Positions 14,643 to 27,604 of a stretch of 64,000 nucleotides of DNA are shown here, piece by piece. The notes under the pieces were generated by a model. The model made no database searches and was not told the DNA's origin. It saw only the letters and a program-made list of their open reading frames with translations. Position 1 is the first letter of the stretch. Every line of letters starts with the position of its first letter. The position numbers were made by a program, and so were the translations under genes. Origin of the DNA: Escherichia coli O157:H7 (GTDB lineage: Bacteria; Pseudomonadota; Gammaproteobacteria; Enterobacterales; Enterobacteriaceae). The stretch lies in the NCBI RefSeq assembly GCF_013167455.1, contig NZ_CP038328.1; one strand, written 5' to 3'.

Positions 14643-16493
14643 TTATGCTGCCGGTGCATTTATCTCCAGCATCAGACTTTCTATCTCAACGCCATACGCT
14701 GCATTTTTTGTAACATCCGTCAGCGTCAGCGCATTCAGTCCCAGTGTCAGACTGTCTTTTATAACCTGGAATGCCGGGCCAGCCACTCCATTCAGTTTCG
14801 GAGTAACCGTGGCACTGCCGGCGGTGAACACCAGCTCCAGCGTCTGCCAGTCGTTACCGTAATCGCCGAACTCCCCCAGCTTCGTGTTTCCGGCTTTCCT
14901 GTGATGCATCAGATTCACTCTGCCGTCAGTGGTCTGAGTGAAGTACGACATCAGGAACGGATTACCGGTACCCGTCATCGCCACACCATCAGGAACGGGA
15001 GCATCCGTATACAGATAAATCCCCAGCCCGAACTGATTGTTGGTCAGCGCGCCTGACAGGCGGAACTTACAGGTCAGTCTGCCGCCCTGTGTCAGCAGGG
15101 TAATTGCGTCATCCACCGGATGCGTCAGGGACCAGGTTTTATTGCTCTGCTTGGTGATCTTAAATACACCATCTGACAACTGAATTCCGCCATCCTTAAT
15201 GCTCCAGCCCTGCGCAGCAGCCTCTCCGGCTGCCGGCAGCAGGGAGATTGTGCGAACGGACGTATCTGCAGACGGACCCGATGGCGTGTTGCCGCCGGGC
15301 GAGGGTTTGATTTCCGGTGCCTTACCACTGATGAAGGCTGAGGTGCGCCCGGCTGCGTTCAGAATAGCGGTTGCCAGACGATCCGGAATAATGCTCCTGC
15401 GCGCCCATGAACTGAAATGTGTCGGGCGGTTTGATGATACCTGGTTTCCATTCGTTCTCGATGCCGCACCGTAATATCCTGATGCCGGAATATCCGGATC
15501 TTCTGCCGGCGCGTTAGTGGCGGTATTGACGCCGTTACCGTCTGTCATGAAGGGCACAAAATAAACGCCCTCACTCTCCCTGTTTTTATACCCGCCGTAC
15601 ACGGTGTCGTACTGGGTAGCGTATGTATTTTTCCAGTAATACGTCGTGTCACCACAAATCCACGGCACATCTGCAGCACTGCCACCATGGCACTGCGCGT
15701 TAAACACGGAGAGGTCAGCACGAAACTGTGTCAGCATGGCTGTAAACAGCGCAGGTTGCTGTGCGTGGGTGGCGGCGCTCATGTCAAACTCTCCCTGCAT
15801 CCAGCACACCGCCAGCAACACATTTTTCGGGTTCTTCTGTAATGCAGCTTTAGTGCGCGCAATCAGGTCCTGATATAACGGTTTACCCACACCCCAGCGT
15901 GCCGAATCCTGGCTGGCCCCCGTGTCCGCACTGAATGTCCCCTCCGCGCCCTGGGTGAATGCAGAACCACCACGACAGCATGGTACCAGCAGGATCCCCG
16001 CGTTATTCGGGATATACGGGAGCAGTTTTTTGGCAATATGTAAGCCCTGGCCGACACAGCCGTACTGCCCTTTGCTCAGGTCTGCCTTCGGATGATTCAG
16101 CGTACTCATATCCTGCACATCATGCAGGCAGTGGTCGGCCGGAATAATATCGTTATATCTGCATGCAGCCCCACCCGGCGTAACTGTACTGCGGCGCGCC
16201 AGCTGTTTAATGCGCGGATCCGGAGCATCGTATGAATCCGGCAGCGGAAGCCCTTCACCGTAAGCCATGGCATTGGACTGCCCGGCCAGTACGATGACGT
16301 AGTACCAATCCGGCTCAGTTGCACCACTGACCACCACATCACCTTCTGCTGTAATCGCCTGCATCAGGGTATAAGGGGTTATGGCCACCGGACTACCAAA
16401 CGGCTGCCAGCCCTCTTTCAGTTTGTGTGTCAGCTTTTCCGCAAGGTCTGACGGCGACGCCGCCCTGACAACATCATAATGTTTAAATGTCAT
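14643..16493 (-). CDS. prophage sialate O-acetylesterase (NanS-p-like; N-terminal DUF1737 plus SGNH esterase)
   Basis: 616 aa; N-terminus MTFKHYDVVRAASPSDLAEKLTHKLKEGWQPFGSPVAITPY…; VIVLAGQSNAMAYG esterase motif; located upstream of S as in Stx phages. Confidence 0.75.
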   Translation of the reverse strand: MTFKHYDVVRAASPSDLAEKLTHKLKEGWQPFGSPVAITPYTLMQAITAEGDVVVSGATEPDWYYVIVLAGQSNAMAYGEGLPLPDSYDAPDPRIKQLARRSTVTPGGAACRYNDIIPADHCLHDVQDMSTLNHPKADLSKGQYGCVGQGLHIAKKLLPYIPNNAGILLVPCCRGGSAFTQGAEGTFSADTGASQDSARWGVGKPLYQDLIARTKAALQKNPKNVLLAVCWMQGEFDMSAATHAQQPALFTAMLTQFRADLSVFNAQCHGGSAADVPWICGDTTYYWKNTYATQYDTVYGGYKNRESEGVYFVPFMTDGNGVNTATNAPAEDPDIPASGYYGAASRTNGNQVSSNRPTHFSSWARRSIIPDRLATAILNAAGRTSAFISGKAPEIKPSPGGNTPSGPSADTSVRTISLLPAAGEAAAQGWSIKDGGIQLSDGVFKITKQSNKTWSLTHPVDDAITLLTQGGRLTCKFRLSGALTNNQFGLGIYLYTDAPVPDGVAMTGTGNPFLMSYFTQTTDGRVNLMHHRKAGNTKLGEFGDYGNDWQTLELVFTAGSATVTPKLNGVAGPAFQVIKDSLTLGLNALTLTDVTKNAAYGVEIESLMLEINAPAA

Positions 16494-17666: not shown

Positions 17667-17743
17667 TGGCGCGTTGTAGTGGAGTCTAACCACTGACCGA
17701 TTGCTTAGAAGGCAATTGCTCTGTCCGACTGAGCTAACAACGC
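17667..17743 (-). tRNA. tRNA-Arg (anticodon UCU)
   Basis: Cloverleaf gcgttgt/acaacgc acceptor, anticodon loop cuUCUaa, unusual T-loop ttagact, CCA encoded. Confidence 0.75.
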
Positions 17744-17756
17744 ATGATGCTGATAA

Positions 17757-17833
17757 TGGACCGCCATCGGGGACTTGAACCCCGCGCAGCCAGCTTCGAA
17801 GGCTGGCGCTCTGTCCCGATGAGCTAATAGCGG
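17757..17833 (-). tRNA. tRNA-Arg (anticodon UCG)
   Basis: Cloverleaf with anticodon stem ccagc/gctgg, loop cuUCGaa, T-arm cgggg-ttcaagt-ccccg, CCA encoded. Confidence 0.7.
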
Positions 17834-17842
17834 TATGTAATA

Positions 17843-17918
17843 TGGTGGCCCTTGCTGGATTTGAACCAGCGACCTGGCGATTATGAGTCGCTCGCTCTCA
17901 CCACTGAGCTAAAGGGCC
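17843..17918 (-). tRNA. ileZ: tRNA-Ile2 (anticodon CAU, ileX/ileZ-like)
   Basis: ggccctttagctcagtggtgagagcgagcgactCATaatcgcc…; near-identical to E. coli tRNA-Ile2 (ileX) from memory; first of three tRNAs downstream of Q. Confidence 0.75.
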
Positions 17919-17946: not shown

Positions 17947-18660
17947 TCAATAATCAAGCCCTTGCCTGGATACATATCTGTCTGGCGGGAAGCCATAATA
18001 GCGGTGAAATACAGAAATAAAGTAGGACCTGCTTGAATAACCGCATTTTTCTGCTATAGCCTGTCCATATCCATGCCGGGAACATAACATATTTACAGCA
18101 ACACGCATCCGCTCTTCCAGCAACAAGCGACTGAACATGCCCCCTTCATTTTTCAGTTTTGTCTTTAACAAACTCTCACTCATATGCAACTGTAGAGCAA
18201 TCGCACCAAGCGTCCAGCTTGCTGATATATCTGTCTGAATTATCGCCCTGACTTTGGCACTTATGCTGGATAAACATCCACTTAAAAACAATGACATCCG
18301 TTCATCTGTTTCAAACAGAGACAGGCAGGCCATCATAAGAAACATATCCGTGGCCTCTCCGGAAAATCCCTGGCTGGTAATTAAAGCCGCAGCCAACGCA
18401 GGATTGTTGGGTTCCAGCAACAGGTAAAGCGGAATGTCAGTCAGACGAGTCCTCGTCAGCTTATGCTGACTTTCCAGATATTGACTTACGACGGATTCGC
18501 TGATATCGACAATTTTAACTTTGCCATAATGCATAAGGAAAAGCTCCCTGATGCATTTGGTGGCCAGAACAACTGAGCCTGGCTTAAGTGACAACGTATC
18601 CTTTTCAAGAAAAATATTAATTGGGGAGCAAACCATGATAACTGAACAGACAACAGCCAT
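17947..18660 (-). CDS. AraC-family transcriptional regulator (prophage moron)
   Basis: 237 aa; C-terminal AraC HTH region …LGAIALQLHMSESLLKTKLKNEGGMFSRLLLEERMRVAVNML…GYSSRSYFISVFHRYYGFPPDRY. Confidence 0.7.
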   Translation of the reverse strand: MAVVCSVIMVCSPINIFLEKDTLSLKPGSVVLATKCIRELFLMHYGKVKIVDISESVVSQYLESQHKLTRTRLTDIPLYLLLEPNNPALAAALITSQGFSGEATDMFLMMACLSLFETDERMSLFLSGCLSSISAKVRAIIQTDISASWTLGAIALQLHMSESLLKTKLKNEGGMFSRLLLEERMRVAVNMLCSRHGYGQAIAEKCGYSSRSYFISVFHRYYGFPPDRYVSRQGLDY

Positions 18661-21171: not shown

Positions 21172-22389
21172 TCAATGAACGGTATCGAGCAGCTTTAACA
21201 GCTCAGGGAATCGGGATTCGAAGAAATGCGGCTGCGTCTCGCGCGGATTTGCGGGACTGGTGATGTTCTTGCCGAACATGCAGCCTTTCGCTGTCAGCGA
21301 CCAGAATTTTTTGATGTTGTTAATCGCGGTACGACTGTATCGTTCGCGCTGCTCGACGATCCCCAGTTTCACCATCTGGTGATATGCCTGATTAGCCGTC
21401 AGGCGTATACCATACTGTTTCAGCAGTGCACTCAGTGACAGTGTCGGGCGACTTGAGCCATCGTGTGCATCAGCAGGAGCATCAATGGCATAGCGCGGTG
21501 CCAGATTCGGTAAGCCAACAGCCTCCTGGAGTTTCTGACAGGCACCAAGCACAGATGAGTTAGACAGGTTTAACTCCCGACGCATAAAGTCCAGCAGAAT
21601 CACACCAGCCTGCATCTTGTCAGCAGCCTGTCCGGATAATTTTTCCGGTGCGCTGGTTACCATGTCGAAAGTACGGATCACCTTAAGATGGAATGACGGG
21701 CTTATCCACATTGCATAGGCATACACCAGTTCCTTGCAGACATACGTTCCCCGTTCATTTCCCCCATGAATCACACTCACCGGGTCAACACCCAAATTCT
21801 GGGTGTTGGTCAATTCATGAACAAGTTCAACAGTTTGTTGGCTGGAAAGAAACTTTCCTGGCTCCTTGGTTCTGGCATTTGCACCAGATGCTACTGCTGC
21901 GCGATGTAGATCGTTCAGGCTGTAACGCCCATAAACATCACGACGAACTTCAATACCATCAATGACCATCAGATTATTCATACTTCGTTTCTCCTCTTGA
22001 TCAGGCGGCTGCACCCGCCGTTTTCTCGTACTTACTGATAGTGATCTCGACCTTCCCTTTCGGGATAACCGGTCCCACTCCACCAGCATTCTTTTCACCT
22101 GACTGTCGTCTTCCCACACACCCGCGTGGGTCAGGGCGTCAAACAGCGCCTTGTTATAGTTGTCCAGATCGCGGATCCTGTTATCCGGAGGAAACAACAC
22201 GATCTCCACTGAAGCAGGTGCCGACGTTGGTTTCGGCAGACGACGTAACTGCTCAATGATGGCGGCACACGCCGCGCTCTGAAATTTTCGCCCCGCCTCG
22301 CTTATCAGGCTCTTACCAGCAAATGCCCCTTTGTTGGGGTGTCGCCAGTACGTGTTCACGCTGGGCGGGAAAGGCAGGATCAGCTTCAT
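21172..22389 (-). CDS. RusA-like Holliday-junction resolvase fused in frame to a KilA-N-domain protein
   Basis: N-terminus MKLILPFPPSVNTYWRH…RDLDNYNKALFDALTHAGVWEDDSQV (RusA); from MNNLMVIDGIEVRRDVYGRYSLNDLHRAAV (KilA-N) with its own AGGAGA RBS; no stop between the two. Confidence 0.6.
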   Translation of the reverse strand: MKLILPFPPSVNTYWRHPNKGAFAGKSLISEAGRKFQSAACAAIIEQLRRLPKPTSAPASVEIVLFPPDNRIRDLDNYNKALFDALTHAGVWEDDSQVKRMLVEWDRLSRKGRSRSLSVSTRKRRVQPPDQEEKRSMNNLMVIDGIEVRRDVYGRYSLNDLHRAAVASGANARTKEPGKFLSSQQTVELVHELTNTQNLGVDPVSVIHGGNERGTYVCKELVYAYAMWISPSFHLKVIRTFDMVTSAPEKLSGQAADKMQAGVILLDFMRRELNLSNSSVLGACQKLQEAVGLPNLAPRYAIDAPADAHDGSSRPTLSLSALLKQYGIRLTANQAYHQMVKLGIVEQRERYSRTAINNIKKFWSLTAKGCMFGKNITSPANPRETQPHFFESRFPELLKLLDTVH

Positions 22390-22712
22390 ACTTTCAGGCC
22401 CCTCTGATGTAACCAGTGGGTTGCACGCAGCCTGGCGTTTTCCTCACCGGCAAGCAGTGAGCGGATAATCCCGACCGCCTCGCTGTCGTCGTCCTTCACC
22501 GCGGTATGAAGCGTGATGCCCCGGGCCACGCCACGCTTTATCGTGATGACACCTTTTTTCTCCAGTGCGCGAAGATGCTCCACCGCTGCATTCACTGAAC
22601 GGTATCCCAGCATGATTGCCACCTCCTGATTGGTTGGCGGGAAGCCACGTTCTTTCTGATAAGAAATCAGCATATCCAGCACCTGCTGCTGGCATTGAGT
22701 TAACGTCGTCAT
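22386..22712 (-). CDS. LexA-like DNA-binding domain protein lacking the peptidase domain
   Basis: 108 aa; MTTLTQCQQQVLDMLISYQKERGFPPTNQEVAIMLGYRSVNAAVEHLRALEKKGVITIKRGVARGI parallels LexA residues 1-70. Confidence 0.65.
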   Translation of the reverse strand: MTTLTQCQQQVLDMLISYQKERGFPPTNQEVAIMLGYRSVNAAVEHLRALEKKGVITIKRGVARGITLHTAVKDDDSEAVGIIRSLLAGEENARLRATHWLHQRGLKV

Positions 22713-23362
22713 GCCGCCATCTCCCTGACCAGTTTTTCCGCCTGCTGGCGAACCTGCGCCAGAAACGCCTCACCACATGCCTCAAGTTCATCGCGCCCGA
22801 TGTAGCTGATTGCCGGTCCCTTCCAGGTCTTATCGAAAACAGCAATAGCACCAGCGAAGAAAGCGCCTGTCGGCACCTGCTTCTCATCCTTCGGGATAAA
22901 CCAGGCAGGCAGTTCAAAACCAATACGCCCGCGAATAAAAGCAATATGGTCCGCATCTTCCGGCCACCACACTTCGCTGGTGGCAGCTTTGATCAGGAAA
23001 ACATAGCGCCCACCCTTATCACGCATGGCACTGGCATGTTTCATGATGTAACGCATGCCGGTGATGTATTGCCCCTCATGCTGACTGGCGCGGCTGTATG
23101 GGGGATTACCAAAGGCAGCCCCTTTAAGCTCCGCAAGACGTTCTGACCAGTCATGCGCCAGCGCGTTGTCTTCCGCCGTGTAATACGCAGCACATTTGGC
23201 GTTATCACCGTCAGTGAACAGATCCAGAACAAACGGGCCAAACAGGGTGTTAATTCCCCAGAAAATGTTGTCCGGCGTGCGCCACTGATCACCCACTTCC
23301 TTCAGTTCATGGGCTGGTTTGTTCCGCAGTTCCACCAGCTCCTGGCAATATTTATTACTCAT
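22709..23362 (-). CDS. phage DNA N6-adenine methyltransferase
   Basis: …AAFGNPPYSRASQ… (NPPY motif); start MSNKYCQELVELRNK taken at 23362, sharing one base with the upstream stop (TAATG). Confidence 0.7.
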   Translation of the reverse strand: MSNKYCQELVELRNKPAHELKEVGDQWRTPDNIFWGINTLFGPFVLDLFTDGDNAKCAAYYTAEDNALAHDWSERLAELKGAAFGNPPYSRASQHEGQYITGMRYIMKHASAMRDKGGRYVFLIKAATSEVWWPEDADHIAFIRGRIGFELPAWFIPKDEKQVPTGAFFAGAIAVFDKTWKGPAISYIGRDELEACGEAFLAQVRQQAEKLVREMAA

Positions 23363-23856
23363 TAAGCCCCCACGTAATTCCCTGACAGATACCACTCATC
23401 ACCCGATACAGCGCGCTTGCTGCTTTTCCGTAAACACTGCTCACGACGCGCCAGAAAATTGTTTCGTTCTGGCTGGGAGTGGCTTTCACGGAATGCCGCC
23501 ATCCACACCGTTGCAGCACGACGGTATAAGCCCCTGGACTCCAGTTCTTCCGCCTGGCGGGTCAGGCACAAAATCACCCGGGGATCGTTAGTGCCGACAT
23601 AGAAATTGCGCACAGGTCTGGTTTCACGAACTGGTTGTGGTTCCGGCTCCTGCGCTCTCTCAGTCAGGCGTGGGAAATGTCTGCGTGTATCTCCTTCACA
23701 ACGGTGAGCCACACGCCCACTCTGACGTAACTTGCTTGCTGACTGCAGAACGCGCTGCCGTGAGTAACCTGCAAAAGCATCCGCAATGTCTCCGGAAGTA
23801 CACCCCGGATGGGCTTCAATGAATTTCTGAACTTCATTCAAAAGACTCATGATCAC
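23362..23856 (-). CDS. putative regulator with PerC/ANR-like C-terminal motif
   Basis: 164 aa; …AEELESRGLYRRAATVWMAAFRESHSQPERNNFLARREQCL… resembles PerC-family proteins (recalled, unverified). Confidence 0.3.
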   Translation of the reverse strand: MIMSLLNEVQKFIEAHPGCTSGDIADAFAGYSRQRVLQSASKLRQSGRVAHRCEGDTRRHFPRLTERAQEPEPQPVRETRPVRNFYVGTNDPRVILCLTRQAEELESRGLYRRAATVWMAAFRESHSQPERNNFLARREQCLRKSSKRAVSGDEWYLSGNYVGA

Positions 23857-24671
23857 CCCCTGAATCCTGCCGGGATCTGGCTGTAGTCCACGTTGTCGTA
23901 ACTGGCTTTGAAGTACGGGTCCTCGCGTCTGGCTGCAGATACCGCAGGAACTTCCCAGGATTCTTCGAAATGACGATCCGGACCAAAGAACGTGACAGCC
24001 TGTTTCACAAATTGTGTGCCGCTGTTACCCATCGCAGATACCCAGCCCGCGTAGCGTTTCACACCTTCCAGCATGGTTTCGGGGTTTACCCCCTCATTCA
24101 AACGGGCTTTCCAGGCTTTGAAGGCTGCAGATTTTGAATTGCCACCAGCACGTTTGGGATATGCCAGCCATGCCTGCTCAAACTCCGGAGAGTATTCCGG
24201 TCGGTTTGAACGAACTCGCACGGACTCATCAACTGATGCACCAACAGCTATTGGTTCATTGACTGGTTCTTTGACTGGTTCAAAAGAGTGACTGGTTCTG
24301 GGTGAATCTCCTGCACTACCCCCTGGTGCAACTCCTGCACTACCTGGTGAATTTGCTGCGCCAGATAGTGAATTATTTGCACTACCCCCTAGTGAATCTC
24401 CTGCACCATCCAGATGAAGGAGATAGATATTACTTGAGTTACCTTTTTCACCTTTCCGGGTGACTTTTTTTACCAGCCCGGACTCACAAAGGGCCGCAAT
24501 ATGATTCATCACAGAACGTTTGCTAATCTCGCACTGGTCAGCAATATGCTGGTAGCTGGGCCAGCACTCCCCCTGATCGCTGGCATTATCAGCCAGCTTG
24601 ATCAGAACCAGTTTTCGCAATGGATTACCCACTCGAATTTTCATCGCTTTAACCATCAGCTCCATACTCAT
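23853..24671 (-). CDS. replication initiator (O-like: N-terminal HTH, low-complexity linker, C-terminal domain)
   Basis: 272 aa; …KLVLIKLADNASDQGECWPSYQHIADQCEISKRSVMNHIAALCESGLV…; middle encodes G/S/A/N-rich linker coinciding with DNA direct repeats. Confidence 0.55.
   Translation of the reverse strand: MSMELMVKAMKIRVGNPLRKLVLIKLADNASDQGECWPSYQHIADQCEISKRSVMNHIAALCESGLVKKVTRKGEKGNSSNIYLLHLDGAGDSLGGSANNSLSGAANSPGSAGVAPGGSAGDSPRTSHSFEPVKEPVNEPIAVGASVDESVRVRSNRPEYSPEFEQAWLAYPKRAGGNSKSAAFKAWKARLNEGVNPETMLEGVKRYAGWVSAMGNSGTQFVKQAVTFFGPDRHFEESWEVPAVSAARREDPYFKASYDNVDYSQIPAGFRG
24240..24420. repeat. two sets of short direct repeats (candidate origin iterons) inside the O-like gene
   Basis: 3x TGACTGGTTC (24262-24299) followed by about 5 copies of a 21-24-bp unit GTGAATCTCCTGCACTACCCCCT-like (24302-24415). 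Confidence 0.6.
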
Positions 24672-24892
24672 GCTGCACCTCCGAGATGCTTCATGTTTTT
24701 TCCGGAGCGAAAGGCTATAAGCGGCATACTGACGCGGTAATTACGGCCCAGCGGTTCACAAATCACCTTCTGACATTCACGGTCAACCAGGCTAACACGT
24801 AGAACATGCCCTGCAGGTGTGGTGTACCACTGACCCGGACGAGGACAACGGAAAGTCTGATTGGTAAACCGTTTGAAAATATTCCGGATCAT
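24668..24892 (-). CDS. hypothetical small protein
   Basis: 74-aa ORF translationally coupled (4-nt overlaps) to both neighbours. Confidence 0.4.
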   Translation of the reverse strand: MIRNIFKRFTNQTFRCPRPGQWYTTPAGHVLRVSLVDRECQKVICEPLGRNYRVSMPLIAFRSGKNMKHLGGAA

Positions 24893-26049
24893 TTGCGCCC
24901 CCTTACCTCTGAAGGGTTCAGCGACAAATTTATGAGGCAGGCCAGCGCCGAAGCATCATTAATATAATCATATAAGCTAACAGCCAGCGGAGATTCAGCT
25001 TTTGCCAACATAGGATAAAGCTGCTGCAGCCAGACCTTGTGGATTACCGACAGGTGGGAGTAAAGCACGCTGGCGTTATCTGCGGCATCGCTCAGCGTGG
25101 ATGGCTTTGAAAGCAGTTTTTCCATCTGGTTAAAGGCATTGATGTATGCCTCTTTGAACCGGGCAGCACGTTTACCCGTGAAACCCATAGCAAGAAACGC
25201 AAAACCGTCTCGTGTGATTTGATAGCAAGGGAGCTTGCGTGTACCACCGTTCGGTTGATTTACCGAAATCGATGTCTCCGCAAAATTGCGGGCACAAAAC
25301 TCAGGGGAACAATCCAGAGTGCGGATCTTTTTCAGCACATCGTCGTGACGCTTGGAGAAGAAGTTGGCAACAGCCAAAGAAGTGGTAACGGCCTGGCCGT
25401 TGTCAATGGTGATTTCAGGTTGAGTGAGGGCTTGGATCGTAGCCATGATGGCAGCCTCCGTTGACAGTGAAAAACTTCCACCACCGGAAACGCCAATTTC
25501 ACTGGTGGTGAACTGGACGGGGTTGGCGTAACCGGCGTCAACGGAGACCGGCGCACCTTTCGGTGCCCCCGCCCAGCCCACCATAATCTGGATGTGAGCA
25601 AATGCGGACGATAAAAAAGACGCTGGCGCGTCATACATCGCCGTTGACAATTTCAGGACGCCAATCCCGGCACCCGCTTTATAAGGTGCCTGAACAGTGT
25701 AACGTCCCGGAATTGCAGAATCAATATGCTGGTGGTCCTTCACACTCAACAAAATCACGCCTGAATTTCCACAAAGGACTAAAGCACTCATGCGGGTAGT
25801 CTTTGCGAAGATAGATAACGCGCTGTGTTTCTGGCTCCCAACGAATAACATGAACATAAAGTCCTCTTCCGTCACGAAACCAGCGGTTAAGTTCCTGCAC
25901 AACTCGCCCCCCACAGTCAGGTAAAGTTCTCTGTGGTTACTTACAGCCAGGTGATTTGGTAATCTGCATTCATGCCGTAACAACAAGTGTTCAGCGACGC
26001 TGACCACCAGCTGTTGCGACAAACGGTTATTTGCCGTTAAACTGTTCAT
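24889..26049 (-). CDS. Rha-family phage regulatory protein with unusual N-terminal extension
   Basis: 386-aa ORF; region MATIQALTQPEITIDNGQAVTTSLAVANFFSKRHDDVLKKIRTL…TRDGFAFLAMGFTGKRAARFKEAYINAFNQME is Rha-like; the first ~190 aa are unrecognised and may reflect a later true start. Confidence 0.5.
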   Translation of the reverse strand: MNSLTANNRLSQQLVVSVAEHLLLRHECRLPNHLAVSNHRELYLTVGGELCRNLTAGFVTEEDFMFMLFVGSQKHSALSIFAKTTRMSALVLCGNSGVILLSVKDHQHIDSAIPGRYTVQAPYKAGAGIGVLKLSTAMYDAPASFLSSAFAHIQIMVGWAGAPKGAPVSVDAGYANPVQFTTSEIGVSGGGSFSLSTEAAIMATIQALTQPEITIDNGQAVTTSLAVANFFSKRHDDVLKKIRTLDCSPEFCARNFAETSISVNQPNGGTRKLPCYQITRDGFAFLAMGFTGKRAARFKEAYINAFNQMEKLLSKPSTLSDAADNASVLYSHLSVIHKVWLQQLYPMLAKAESPLAVSLYDYINDASALACLINLSLNPSEVRGRK

Positions 26050-26950: not shown

Positions 26951-27604
26951 ATGATGAACATGAGTGATCGTATTCGCCAAAGGCGAAAAGAACTGAACCT
27001 GACACAACAAGCACTGGCTGATTTGACTGGTGTGAACCGTGTCACGGTTACTGGATGGGAAAAGGACGACTACCAACCAAATGGAGCCAACCTTCAAGCC
27101 CTAGCCAACGCACTTAAATGCGATCCTCTGTGGCTTGTTAGCGGAAAAGGCTCGCCTGAACCAAAGATAAATCTAAAACCTGAAATATTCGCAGTTAAAA
27201 AAGTCCCCCTCATCTCGTGGGTTCAGGCGGGTTCATGGACAATGACGGAGCCTGGTGTCAGGAAAGAAGATGCTGAAGAGTGGGTTTATACTACCGCCCT
27301 TGTATCAGAAATGGCATTTGCACTACGGGTCCGTGGTGATTCAATGACCAATCCCCTCGGCTCACCATCGATACCAGAAGGTTCTATCGTTATCGTAGAG
27401 CCAGATATTATTGATACAGAGTGTATTAACGGAAAAATCGTTGTTGCCCATATCAATGGTGGGCAAGAAGCGACACTCAAAAAATTTGTTGAGGACTGGC
27501 CGAACAGGTATCTCGTCCCACTAAATCCTAACTATAAAACTATTGAATGCGGTGAGAACTGCAGAATAGTTGGTCTTGTCAAACAAGTAATAATGGATTT
27601 TTGA
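26951..27604 (+). CDS. cI: CI-type repressor (HTH_XRE plus S24 LexA-like peptidase domain)
   Basis: 217 aa; N-terminal HTH (IRQRRKELNLTQQALADLTGVNRVTVTGWE), Ala-Gly cleavage site (VQAGSW), catalytic Ser (VRGDSM) and Lys (ATLKKF). Confidence 0.85.
   Translation: MMNMSDRIRQRRKELNLTQQALADLTGVNRVTVTGWEKDDYQPNGANLQALANALKCDPLWLVSGKGSPEPKINLKPEIFAVKKVPLISWVQAGSWTMTEPGVRKEDAEEWVYTTALVSEMAFALRVRGDSMTNPLGSPSIPEGSIVIVEPDIIDTECINGKIVVAHINGGQEATLKKFVEDWPNRYLVPLNPNYKTIECGENCRIVGLVKQVIMDF

Follow-up and report, generated by a model that had tools for sequence, protein, structure and literature searches.

The window analysed here is a stretch of 64,000 nucleotides from Escherichia coli O157:H7 (assembly GCF_013167455.1, contig NZ_CP038328.1). 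A prophage occupies approximately its first 36 kb and is bordered on the right by the host genes zur, dinF and plsB (36407-42427). Our subject is a cluster of direct repeats inside the replication initiator gene of this prophage, which an earlier note, made from the sequence alone, had put forward as a candidate replication origin of the kind found in phage lambda. The gene belongs to a lambdoid early operon on the minus strand that comprises cro, a cII-like gene, a Rha-like gene (24889-26049, upstream of the initiator), an open reading frame (ORF) of 74 residues, the initiator, a PerC/ANR-like activator, Dam, a LexA-like gene, RusA, HNH/DUF968 and Q. A cI-like repressor gene (26951-27604) adjoins cro in divergent orientation.

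The initiator gene (23853-24671, minus strand) encodes 272 residues. The protein matches PHROG 270 ('replication initiation protein') with E=1.7e-88 over residues 3-271 and the Pfam family HTH_36 with E=2.7e-11 over residues 17-67, in agreement with the earlier reading of the gene as a replication initiator. With this Pfam match and the full-length PHROG match it falls among the HTH_36-type phage replication initiators, a class taken here as PHROG 270, 8540 and 391. Its amino acid identity is 100% to orf39 of phage SfV ('replication protein'), 98% to the protein of Stx2a_WGPS2 and 88% to sb42 of ST64B, and the gene is 98-99% identical in nucleotides to those of mEp460, cdtI and several Shiga toxin 2 (Stx2) phages. 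Plasmid records carrying the gene resemble circular phage genomes.

Two domains can be recognized in the protein. The N-terminal winged-helix DNA-binding domain (residues 1-88, 24408-24671, minus strand) contains a predicted recognition helix at about residues 51-63 (KRSVMNHIAALCE), and an AlphaFold2 model of residues 1-92 is a winged helix with a predicted local distance difference test (pLDDT) score of 90. The C-terminal helical domain (residues ~157-250, 23922-24203, minus strand) carries the motif FEQAWxxYPKRxGGNxK...RY...TFFGP. The N-terminal half also matches several PHROG 'replication initiation O-like' families, and the C-terminal half matches PHROG families of 'DnaD-like helicase loader' and 'primosomal protein'. 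Besides HTH_36, Pfam gives a weak match of the protein to DnaD_N. The lambda O family (Phage_rep_O) was not found among the Pfam matches of the protein, and an hhalign comparison of the N-terminal alignment with lambda O returned a probability of 3%. The description 'O-like' therefore does not hold for the sequence itself; as far as sequence can tell, the initiator is not a relative of lambda O.

The repeats lie where the earlier note had located them, in the coding sequence for residues ~89-140 (GAGDSLGGSANNSLSGAANSPGSAGVAPGGSAGDSPRTSHSFEPVKEPVNEP), a low-complexity linker rich in G, S, A, N and P that joins the winged helix to the C-terminal domain; the gene being on the minus strand, the repeats quoted in that note were the reverse complement of the coding sense. 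Five 15-bp units of the form GTGCA-N5-TTCAC (gene sense, used below unless the plus strand is named) occupy 24302-24406 at steps of 24, 21, 21 and 24 bp and encode residues 89-123. Iteron 1 (GTGCAGGAGATTCAC, 24392-24406) and iteron 2 (GTGCAAATAATTCAC, 24368-24382) have the same arms and differ in their centres, each scoring 4/5 as a dyad. They are followed by iteron 3 (GCGCAGCAAATTCAC, 24347-24361), with one arm change relative to SfV and most close relatives, iteron 4 (GTGCAGGAGTTGCAC, 24326-24340), a perfect 5/5 dyad, and iteron 5 (again GTGCAGGAGATTCAC, 24302-24316), 24 bp from iteron 4. All five are on the minus strand, and four of them reach a dyad score of at least 4/5. Tandem Repeats Finder describes the same interval as a 24-bp unit in 4.6 copies, which agrees with the 'about five' units of 21-24 bp first reported. 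Allowing up to three mismatches, the 15-bp pattern has 10 matches in the window versus 1.49 expected.

Two single observations concern these units. The left arm of iteron 3 reads GCGCA for GTGCA, a synonymous T-to-C change (GGT to GGC) that is absent from SfV, cdtI and 41 of 43 close relatives on viral contigs and present in the other two; this sample consists of near-identical SfV-type loci, with the array recovered in 43 of 80. An isolated near-copy of the iteron (GTGAAGGAGATACAC, 23685-23699, minus strand; two mismatches, dyad 4/5) lies about 600 bp downstream inside the PerC/ANR-like gene. It can be compared with a true iteron of ST64B (GTGAAGGAGATTCAC) and could be either a chance match or an outlying initiator site.

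Directly beyond iteron 5, at 24252-24301 (minus strand), the gene reads CC AGAACCAGTCAC TCTTTT GAACCAGTCA AA GAACCAGTCA AT GAACCA. On the plus strand this segment contains three exact copies of TGACTGGTTC, at 24260-24269, 24272-24281 and 24289-24298, precisely as had been claimed, together with a partial fourth copy (TGGTTC, 24252-24257), so that GAACC recurs at spacings of 17, 12 and 12 nucleotides. The whole window holds four matches to TGACTGGTTC versus 0.13 expected, and none of 100 shuffled sequences reached four. The first GAACC copy is read as R-T-S-H and the later copies as E-P-V, that is, in different frames. The earlier note had taken the TGACTGGTTC copies for a second kind of iteron; the comparisons below assign them instead to an invariant element found across the initiator family, which we call the core.

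To compare the array across the family, we assembled about 75 relatives. Some were found by protein similarity (ST64B, Aeromonas AsXd-1, Vibrio D67, D68, D96a and phiV039C, Stx2a_F403, Stx2_EH2085, a Klebsiella phage, Pectobacterium ZF40, mEp013 and two more distant phages), and 62 loci, chosen by the core motif, came from scans of one genome per species. Unit-calling failed for eight heterogeneous arrays. An array of 3-8 units was present at the matching position of the gene in every relative examined, including the isolated phages SfV, ST64B, cdtI, mEp460, AsXd-1, ZF40 and the Vibrio phages; absence of the repeats from functional relatives, which the earlier note had named as grounds for rejecting the proposal, was thus looked for and not seen. 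Unit spacing was 21-24 bp in all 182 steps measured, and the last step was 24 bp in 56/56 arrays. A 5-N5-5 dyad with at least 4/5 complementary arm positions was present in 179 of 246 units (73%), compared with 65 of 2,962 control 15-mers (2%) drawn from the adjacent coding sequence. When units were picked by the dyad alone, identity within arrays was 0.88 for the arms, 0.58 for the central 5 bp and 0.37 for the spacer, a gradient that would be expected of a dimer contacting two half-sites.

The arms themselves differ between lineages and fall into the classes GTGCA..TTCAC, GTGAC..GTCAC, GGGCA..TGCCC, TGCCA..TGGCA, GTGTA..TACAC, GGTCA..TGACC and AGGCC..AGCAC, each with its own recognition-helix sequence. 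The helix CEIDRSTVRKHI is paired with arms AGGCC..AGCAC in seven of seven loci, CEIGRSTVK with GGGCA..TGCCC and CECSKSAVR with TGCC..GGCA. Part of this covariation is linkage, because arms and helix are encoded within one gene. Units in both orientations coexist in 11 arrays, for instance GTGCAGGAGATTCAC and its reverse complement, which specify different peptides and a single dyad site, and the reading frame shifts between units in 21/56 arrays through steps of 22 and 23 bp; a repeated peptide is therefore no explanation of the array. The linker peptides of one lineage bear no relation to those of another, and the DNA geometry is retained throughout. Copy number varies among near-identical phages (five in the window versus eight in cdtI) and in an Eru5-type pair (three in Stx2a_F403 versus seven in Stx2_EH2085). 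A separate case is offered by the Vibrio phages D96a (2762-2880 in its locus) and D67 (2769-2830), whose C-terminal domains are identical and whose N-terminal domains are markedly different (32% and 48% identity to that of the window protein, respectively); both use GTGAC/GTGAT-N5-GTCAC units. Taken together, the fixed geometry, dyads, arm conservation, flipped units, frame changes, unrelated peptides and copy-number variation mean that, at the level of sequence, a repeat that matters to the protein alone is excluded, and the units look like binding sites for a dimeric winged-helix protein.

Family-wide the core follows the pattern CC-AGAACCAGTCAC-N6-GAACCAGTCA-N2-GAACC, of about 37-40 bp, with a pyrimidine-rich 6-bp spacer. 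Synonymous sites were compared over its 11 codons in eight diverged lineages, which had been found by protein similarity and whose N-terminal domains are saturated for synonymous change. All 237 of the 237 codon pairs encoding the same residue were identical in the core, versus 442 of 1,117 (40%) in the N-terminal domain of the same lineages, where no 11-codon window exceeded 48%. Exact AGAACCAGTCAC-N6-GAACCAGTCA occurs in 62 species-representative genomes of Gammaproteobacteria, among them Photorhabdus, Xenorhabdus, Pseudomonas, Shewanella, Marinomonas, Haemophilus, Microbulbifer, Proteus, Providencia, Serratia and other genera. At every locus with enough upstream sequence it lies 2 bp after the iteron array and inside an HTH_36 initiator gene, and in 56 of 58 distinct loci a third GAACC, not demanded by the search, stands at a constant offset. 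Stx2a_F403 (Eru5) has a related initiator with iterons of its own and the same core. Among more distant members, PotUPM1 and mEp013 for example still carry degenerate GAACC or AACCAGT repeats. How the repeats are built, how they are conserved, how they covary with the DNA-binding domain and how the nucleotides are constrained can all be read directly from the sequences.

The initiator gene of the Pseudomonas phage PotUPM1, of 70% G+C, contains, between its nucleotides 231 and 410, seven CCCCGCAG..TGCAC units followed by four GAACC repeats 11-12 nucleotides apart (AGAACCGTAAT AGAACCAACAAG GAACCGTCAGCA GAACCGCAA), a degenerate core. The Vibrio phage D96a is without the invariant GAACC core.

The core looks like an origin element that acts in cis: it is invariant, has an internal periodicity of 17 and 12 nucleotides and is rigidly tied to the last iteron. 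On this sequence evidence, it would most likely be the site of duplex opening, or else of a second contact with a conserved segment of the initiator or with a host protein that is itself conserved. A bolder possibility, which we hold only tentatively, is that the core represents a new kind of origin element, a sequence-specific recognition or opening site that replaces the AT-rich unwinding element and is read by the highly conserved portion of this initiator family or by a host protein that is conserved. In an informal comparison by eye with the consensus sequences of the DnaA box, IHF, FNR/CRP and sigma-54, the core showed no match.

A lambda-like, strongly AT-rich tract adjoining the repeats was not found. 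The 40 bp past the last unit are 55% A+T in the window and 52-60% in core-carrying relatives, versus 75% in lambda, and in this respect the proposed resemblance to the lambda origin fails, whereas the repeat anatomy does match that of the lambda iterons run through the same scripts. The mean A+T profile of 52 loci has modest maxima on both sides of the array (-150 to -120 and 0 to +40), with a peak of 61%. The core is not a classical unwinding element, because its A+T content is only 55-61%, yet it is a local maximum of the family average. The most A+T-rich stretch near the repeats (24412-24451, about 70% in 30-nucleotide windows) is on the promoter-proximal side of the array, in the sequence encoding the wing of the winged helix, and is a possible alternative unwinding site. 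The minimum of GC skew over 18-31 kb falls at the cI/cro divergence and not at the repeats, which makes the skew uninformative for the origin.

Could the repeats nevertheless owe their existence to the protein or the transcript? A slippage-prone, low-complexity linker with no role at the DNA level, the origin lying elsewhere, would account for window spacings that are all multiples of three, for units that encode similar peptides of 7-8 residues, for a copy number that varies as in ordinary tandem repeats and for linker peptides that are poorly conserved across lineages, as flexible linkers often are. A peptide repeat gives no reason to expect dyads in 73% of units and 2% of controls, arms conserved over centres, units flipped in 11 arrays or frames changed in 21 of 56, and it leaves unexplained why the DNA geometry is kept when the peptides are wholly different; we regard it as very improbable. 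Lower still in our estimation, and barely credible, is that the core acts in RNA or translation, either as a recoding or frameshift site yielding a truncated DNA-binding isoform or as a structured RNA. A TGA in the -1 frame does follow directly after TCTTTT in most variants, and the repeat is read in one frame in its first copy and in another in the later ones. Against this, no slippery heptamer is conserved, N6 being TCTTTT, TCTTCT, TCTCTT, TCTTTA or others, so programmed -1 frameshifting at TCTTTT-GA was rejected as a candidate; TTTGA-N5-TCAAA around the second GAACCAGTCA copy was likewise discarded as a hairpin or dimer site, since its dyad is lost in Pseudomonas variants. Direct repeats are unable to form a helix, and the Rfam search gave no match at E values up to 1.

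Two other accounts grant the repeats a role in DNA and place the start of replication elsewhere or separate the core from it. The GAACC core might be a joint for homologous recombination that shuffles N-terminal/iteron modules against C-terminal modules, and is not then an origin component. Mosaicism does change over right after the GAACC repeats, N-terminal matches ending at residues 136-142 and C-terminal matches starting at residues 142-157, and N-terminal domains of one class are found joined to different C-terminal domains, and vice versa; an identity of about 30-37 bp is also close to the minimum for RecA-type recombination. However, strong purifying selection is required to keep this segment 100% identical, synonymous sites included, in phages of Haemophilus, Vibrio, Pseudomonas and Escherichia, and selection for evolvability is weak. 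A patch of homology requires neither an internal period (GAACC at 17 and 12 nucleotides) nor a fixed 2-bp distance from the iterons, and the degenerate repeats that persist in PotUPM1 and mEp013 speak against it too. We consider this account unlikely, and the reading of the core as a recombination 'linker' weaker than that of a cis-acting origin element. Somewhat less plausible again is the view that the units are true initiator sites serving autoregulation, copy-number control or 'handcuffing', with replication starting elsewhere. Plasmid iterons serve both roles (PMC4980987), the array has no strong adjoining AT-rich tract, and the near-match at 23685-23699 shows that iteron-like sequence occurs 600 bp downstream. 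The array is, on the other hand, in the middle of the gene and far from the promoter of that gene, and its geometry matches that of the lambda origin (oriλ), with the oriL repeats of SPP1 also lying within an initiator gene (PMC6316719). It is rigidly coupled, by 2 bp and by a last step that is always 24 bp, to an invariant element of non-coding type, and no second cluster of repeats came to light elsewhere in the early region.

We therefore return to the origin reading: 24252-24406 is, with good probability, the replication origin of the prophage, located inside the linker-coding part of its own initiator gene, with iterons bound by the initiator and the helicase delivered at the core. That the protein binds, the duplex unwinds, a helicase is recruited and the site acts as an origin is what we infer from the sequence features described above. 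On derepression, rightward early transcription from the cro side would pass through the site, as in lambda, and the initiator would be made. Dimers of its winged-helix domain would then fill the five dyads, which are about two helical turns apart and on one face of the helix, to give a complex resembling the lambda O-some. This complex might strain the adjoining core so that the duplex opens there, or a conserved part of the initiator might make a second sequence-specific contact. The C-terminal domain would recruit the host DnaB-DnaC at the core, and host primase and polymerase would come next.

Recruitment of the host proteins is proposed because the phage encodes no helicase or loader: no such gene was found downstream of the initiator or elsewhere in the early region, as had also been remarked earlier for the genes that follow. 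The next genes encode a PerC/ANR-like transcriptional activator (23362-23856, minus strand; PHROG 1324, E=2.6e-78, with the NCBIfam ANR_neg_reg match below its cutoff) and a Dam-type DNA methyltransferase (22709-23395, minus strand; PHROG 111, E=2.9e-90). The C-terminal helical domain is presumed to be an adaptor to a helicase system of the DnaC/DnaB type. This arrangement is unusual in the family, since most relatives have a helicase or loader gene directly after the initiator. AsXd-1 combines a C-terminal domain of the window type with DnaC-like and DnaB-like genes, and an Enterobacter locus with the same type of domain continues with ORFs of 294 and 460 residues, which match the AsXd-1 genes by size only. 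A DnaC-like gene follows the initiator in Va_PF430-3; in the Klebsiella phage its place is taken by a P-like loader, in ZF40 and phiV039C by a DnaB-like helicase, and in F403 by a primase-helicase. Many Pseudomonas loci have a Walker-A ORF of 250-290 residues, often followed by a second of about 455-465 residues, as judged by ORF length and motif only. The type of helicase or loader downstream goes with the type of C-terminal domain, and the family as a whole operates with five helicase-delivery arrangements, one of them without any phage-encoded gene.

Stx-phage replication regions have been divided into Eru types, and Eru6 is defined by gene content (PMC8951638). With Rha-like and HTH_36 genes next to cI, and an initiator gene 98.5% identical in nucleotides to that of the Eru6 representative Stx2a_WGPS2 (AP012537), the region in the window is, by gene content and sequence identity, of the Stx-phage 'Eru6' type.

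Other features of the prophage were noted around this region. A tRNA cluster (Arg-tct, Arg-tcg and Met, 17667-17918) lies downstream of Q as in Stx phages, and an AraC-family regulator resembling YdeO/GadX (17947-18660) is located between Q and the tRNAs; tRNA-Arg(tct) decodes AGA, a rare codon that is fixed within the invariant core. Between the tRNA cluster and a gene of 616 residues (14643-16493) there is no ORF of the size of an Stx A subunit. An ORF of 405 residues (21172-22389, minus strand) joins a RusA-like resolvase (residues 1-113) to a PHROG 129 'transcriptional regulator' domain (residues 137-403); its SfV counterpart is two genes, orf43 and orf44, and the difference could be a fusion or a sequence change. 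A terminator-like hairpin on the plus strand (24448-24463, TCACCTTTCCGGGTGA followed by a T-run) is antisense to the initiator gene and, in gene sense, lies shortly upstream of the iterons; the number of such hairpins is at the chance level (one found versus 1.1 expected). A promoter scan found no sites.

The replication of Shiga-toxin and other lambdoid prophages controls toxin gene dosage, and the present analysis provides base-pair-level origin predictions for Eru6 and Eru5, which can be extended to relatives in at least 62 gammaproteobacterial species. The matched classes of recognition helix and iteron form a natural table for the study of winged-helix DNA specificity, and about 37 bp under complete nucleotide constraint within a coding region turn origin opening without an AT-rich tract into a concrete, testable question. 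Should the core indeed prove to be an origin element of a new kind, it would stand as a phage counterpart of DnaA-trios or of plasmid unwinding-element repeats and, shared unchanged from Haemophilus to Pseudomonas, would offer a handle common to a very large family of prophage replicons that includes the Eru5 and Eru6 Shiga-toxin phages.

Several known systems bear comparison with this locus. The papers on Eru types (PMC8044961, PMC8951638; Llarena et al.) define the classes by gene content only, mention neither iterons nor an origin and state that the Eru replication proteins are unknown. Our literature searches found no paper that mentions the core motif, or iterons in SfV or ST64B, and no description of iterons or core for this initiator family, although an earlier description elsewhere is possible. 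In iteron plasmids such as RK2, F and pPS10, winged-helix initiators likewise act on directly repeated sites. The RK2 and F plasmids have specific unwinding-element repeats that are recognized by Rep on one strand (PMC4081077), and by analogy these would be the best precedent for a sequence-constrained repeat element beside iterons. Plasmid iterons, however, are usually intergenic and bound by monomers, whereas the units in the window are dyads within coding sequence and their flank is not AT-rich. The oriL of SPP1 consists of direct repeats within the initiator gene 38 (PMC6316719); unlike the window, SPP1 (G38P, G39P loader, G40P helicase) has its own AT-rich unwinding element, loader and helicase, and the relationship seen between the two systems is a weak fold match.

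The closest parallel is lambda. As a positive control, its annotated iterons passed through the same scripts as CCCTC-N5-GAGGG units spaced 20, 24 and 23 bp apart in the middle of gene O. Lambda has four iterons and Stx phages six, their O being longer by 13 residues, and the iterons adjoining the AT-rich tract are those bound best and needed for unwinding (PMC7466680). The lambda origin and the one proposed here both occupy the middle of an initiator gene, where it encodes the linker that joins an N-terminal DNA-binding domain to a C-terminal domain for recruitment, and both use 5-N5-5 dyad iterons (4-6 in the lambda type) 20-24 bp apart whose copy number varies and changes the length of the protein. 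They differ in that the flank in the window is an invariant GAACC-repeat core of 55-61% A+T, and in lambda a tract of 75% A+T, and in that the window initiator is without detectable O homology and without a P-like loader gene. An origin within the initiator gene is thus a known architecture, and the window presents, on the sequence evidence, a lambda-like origin in an unrelated initiator family, which departs from that architecture in three ways: an invariant core that is not AT-rich, the lack of a loader gene and interchangeable C-terminal adaptors.

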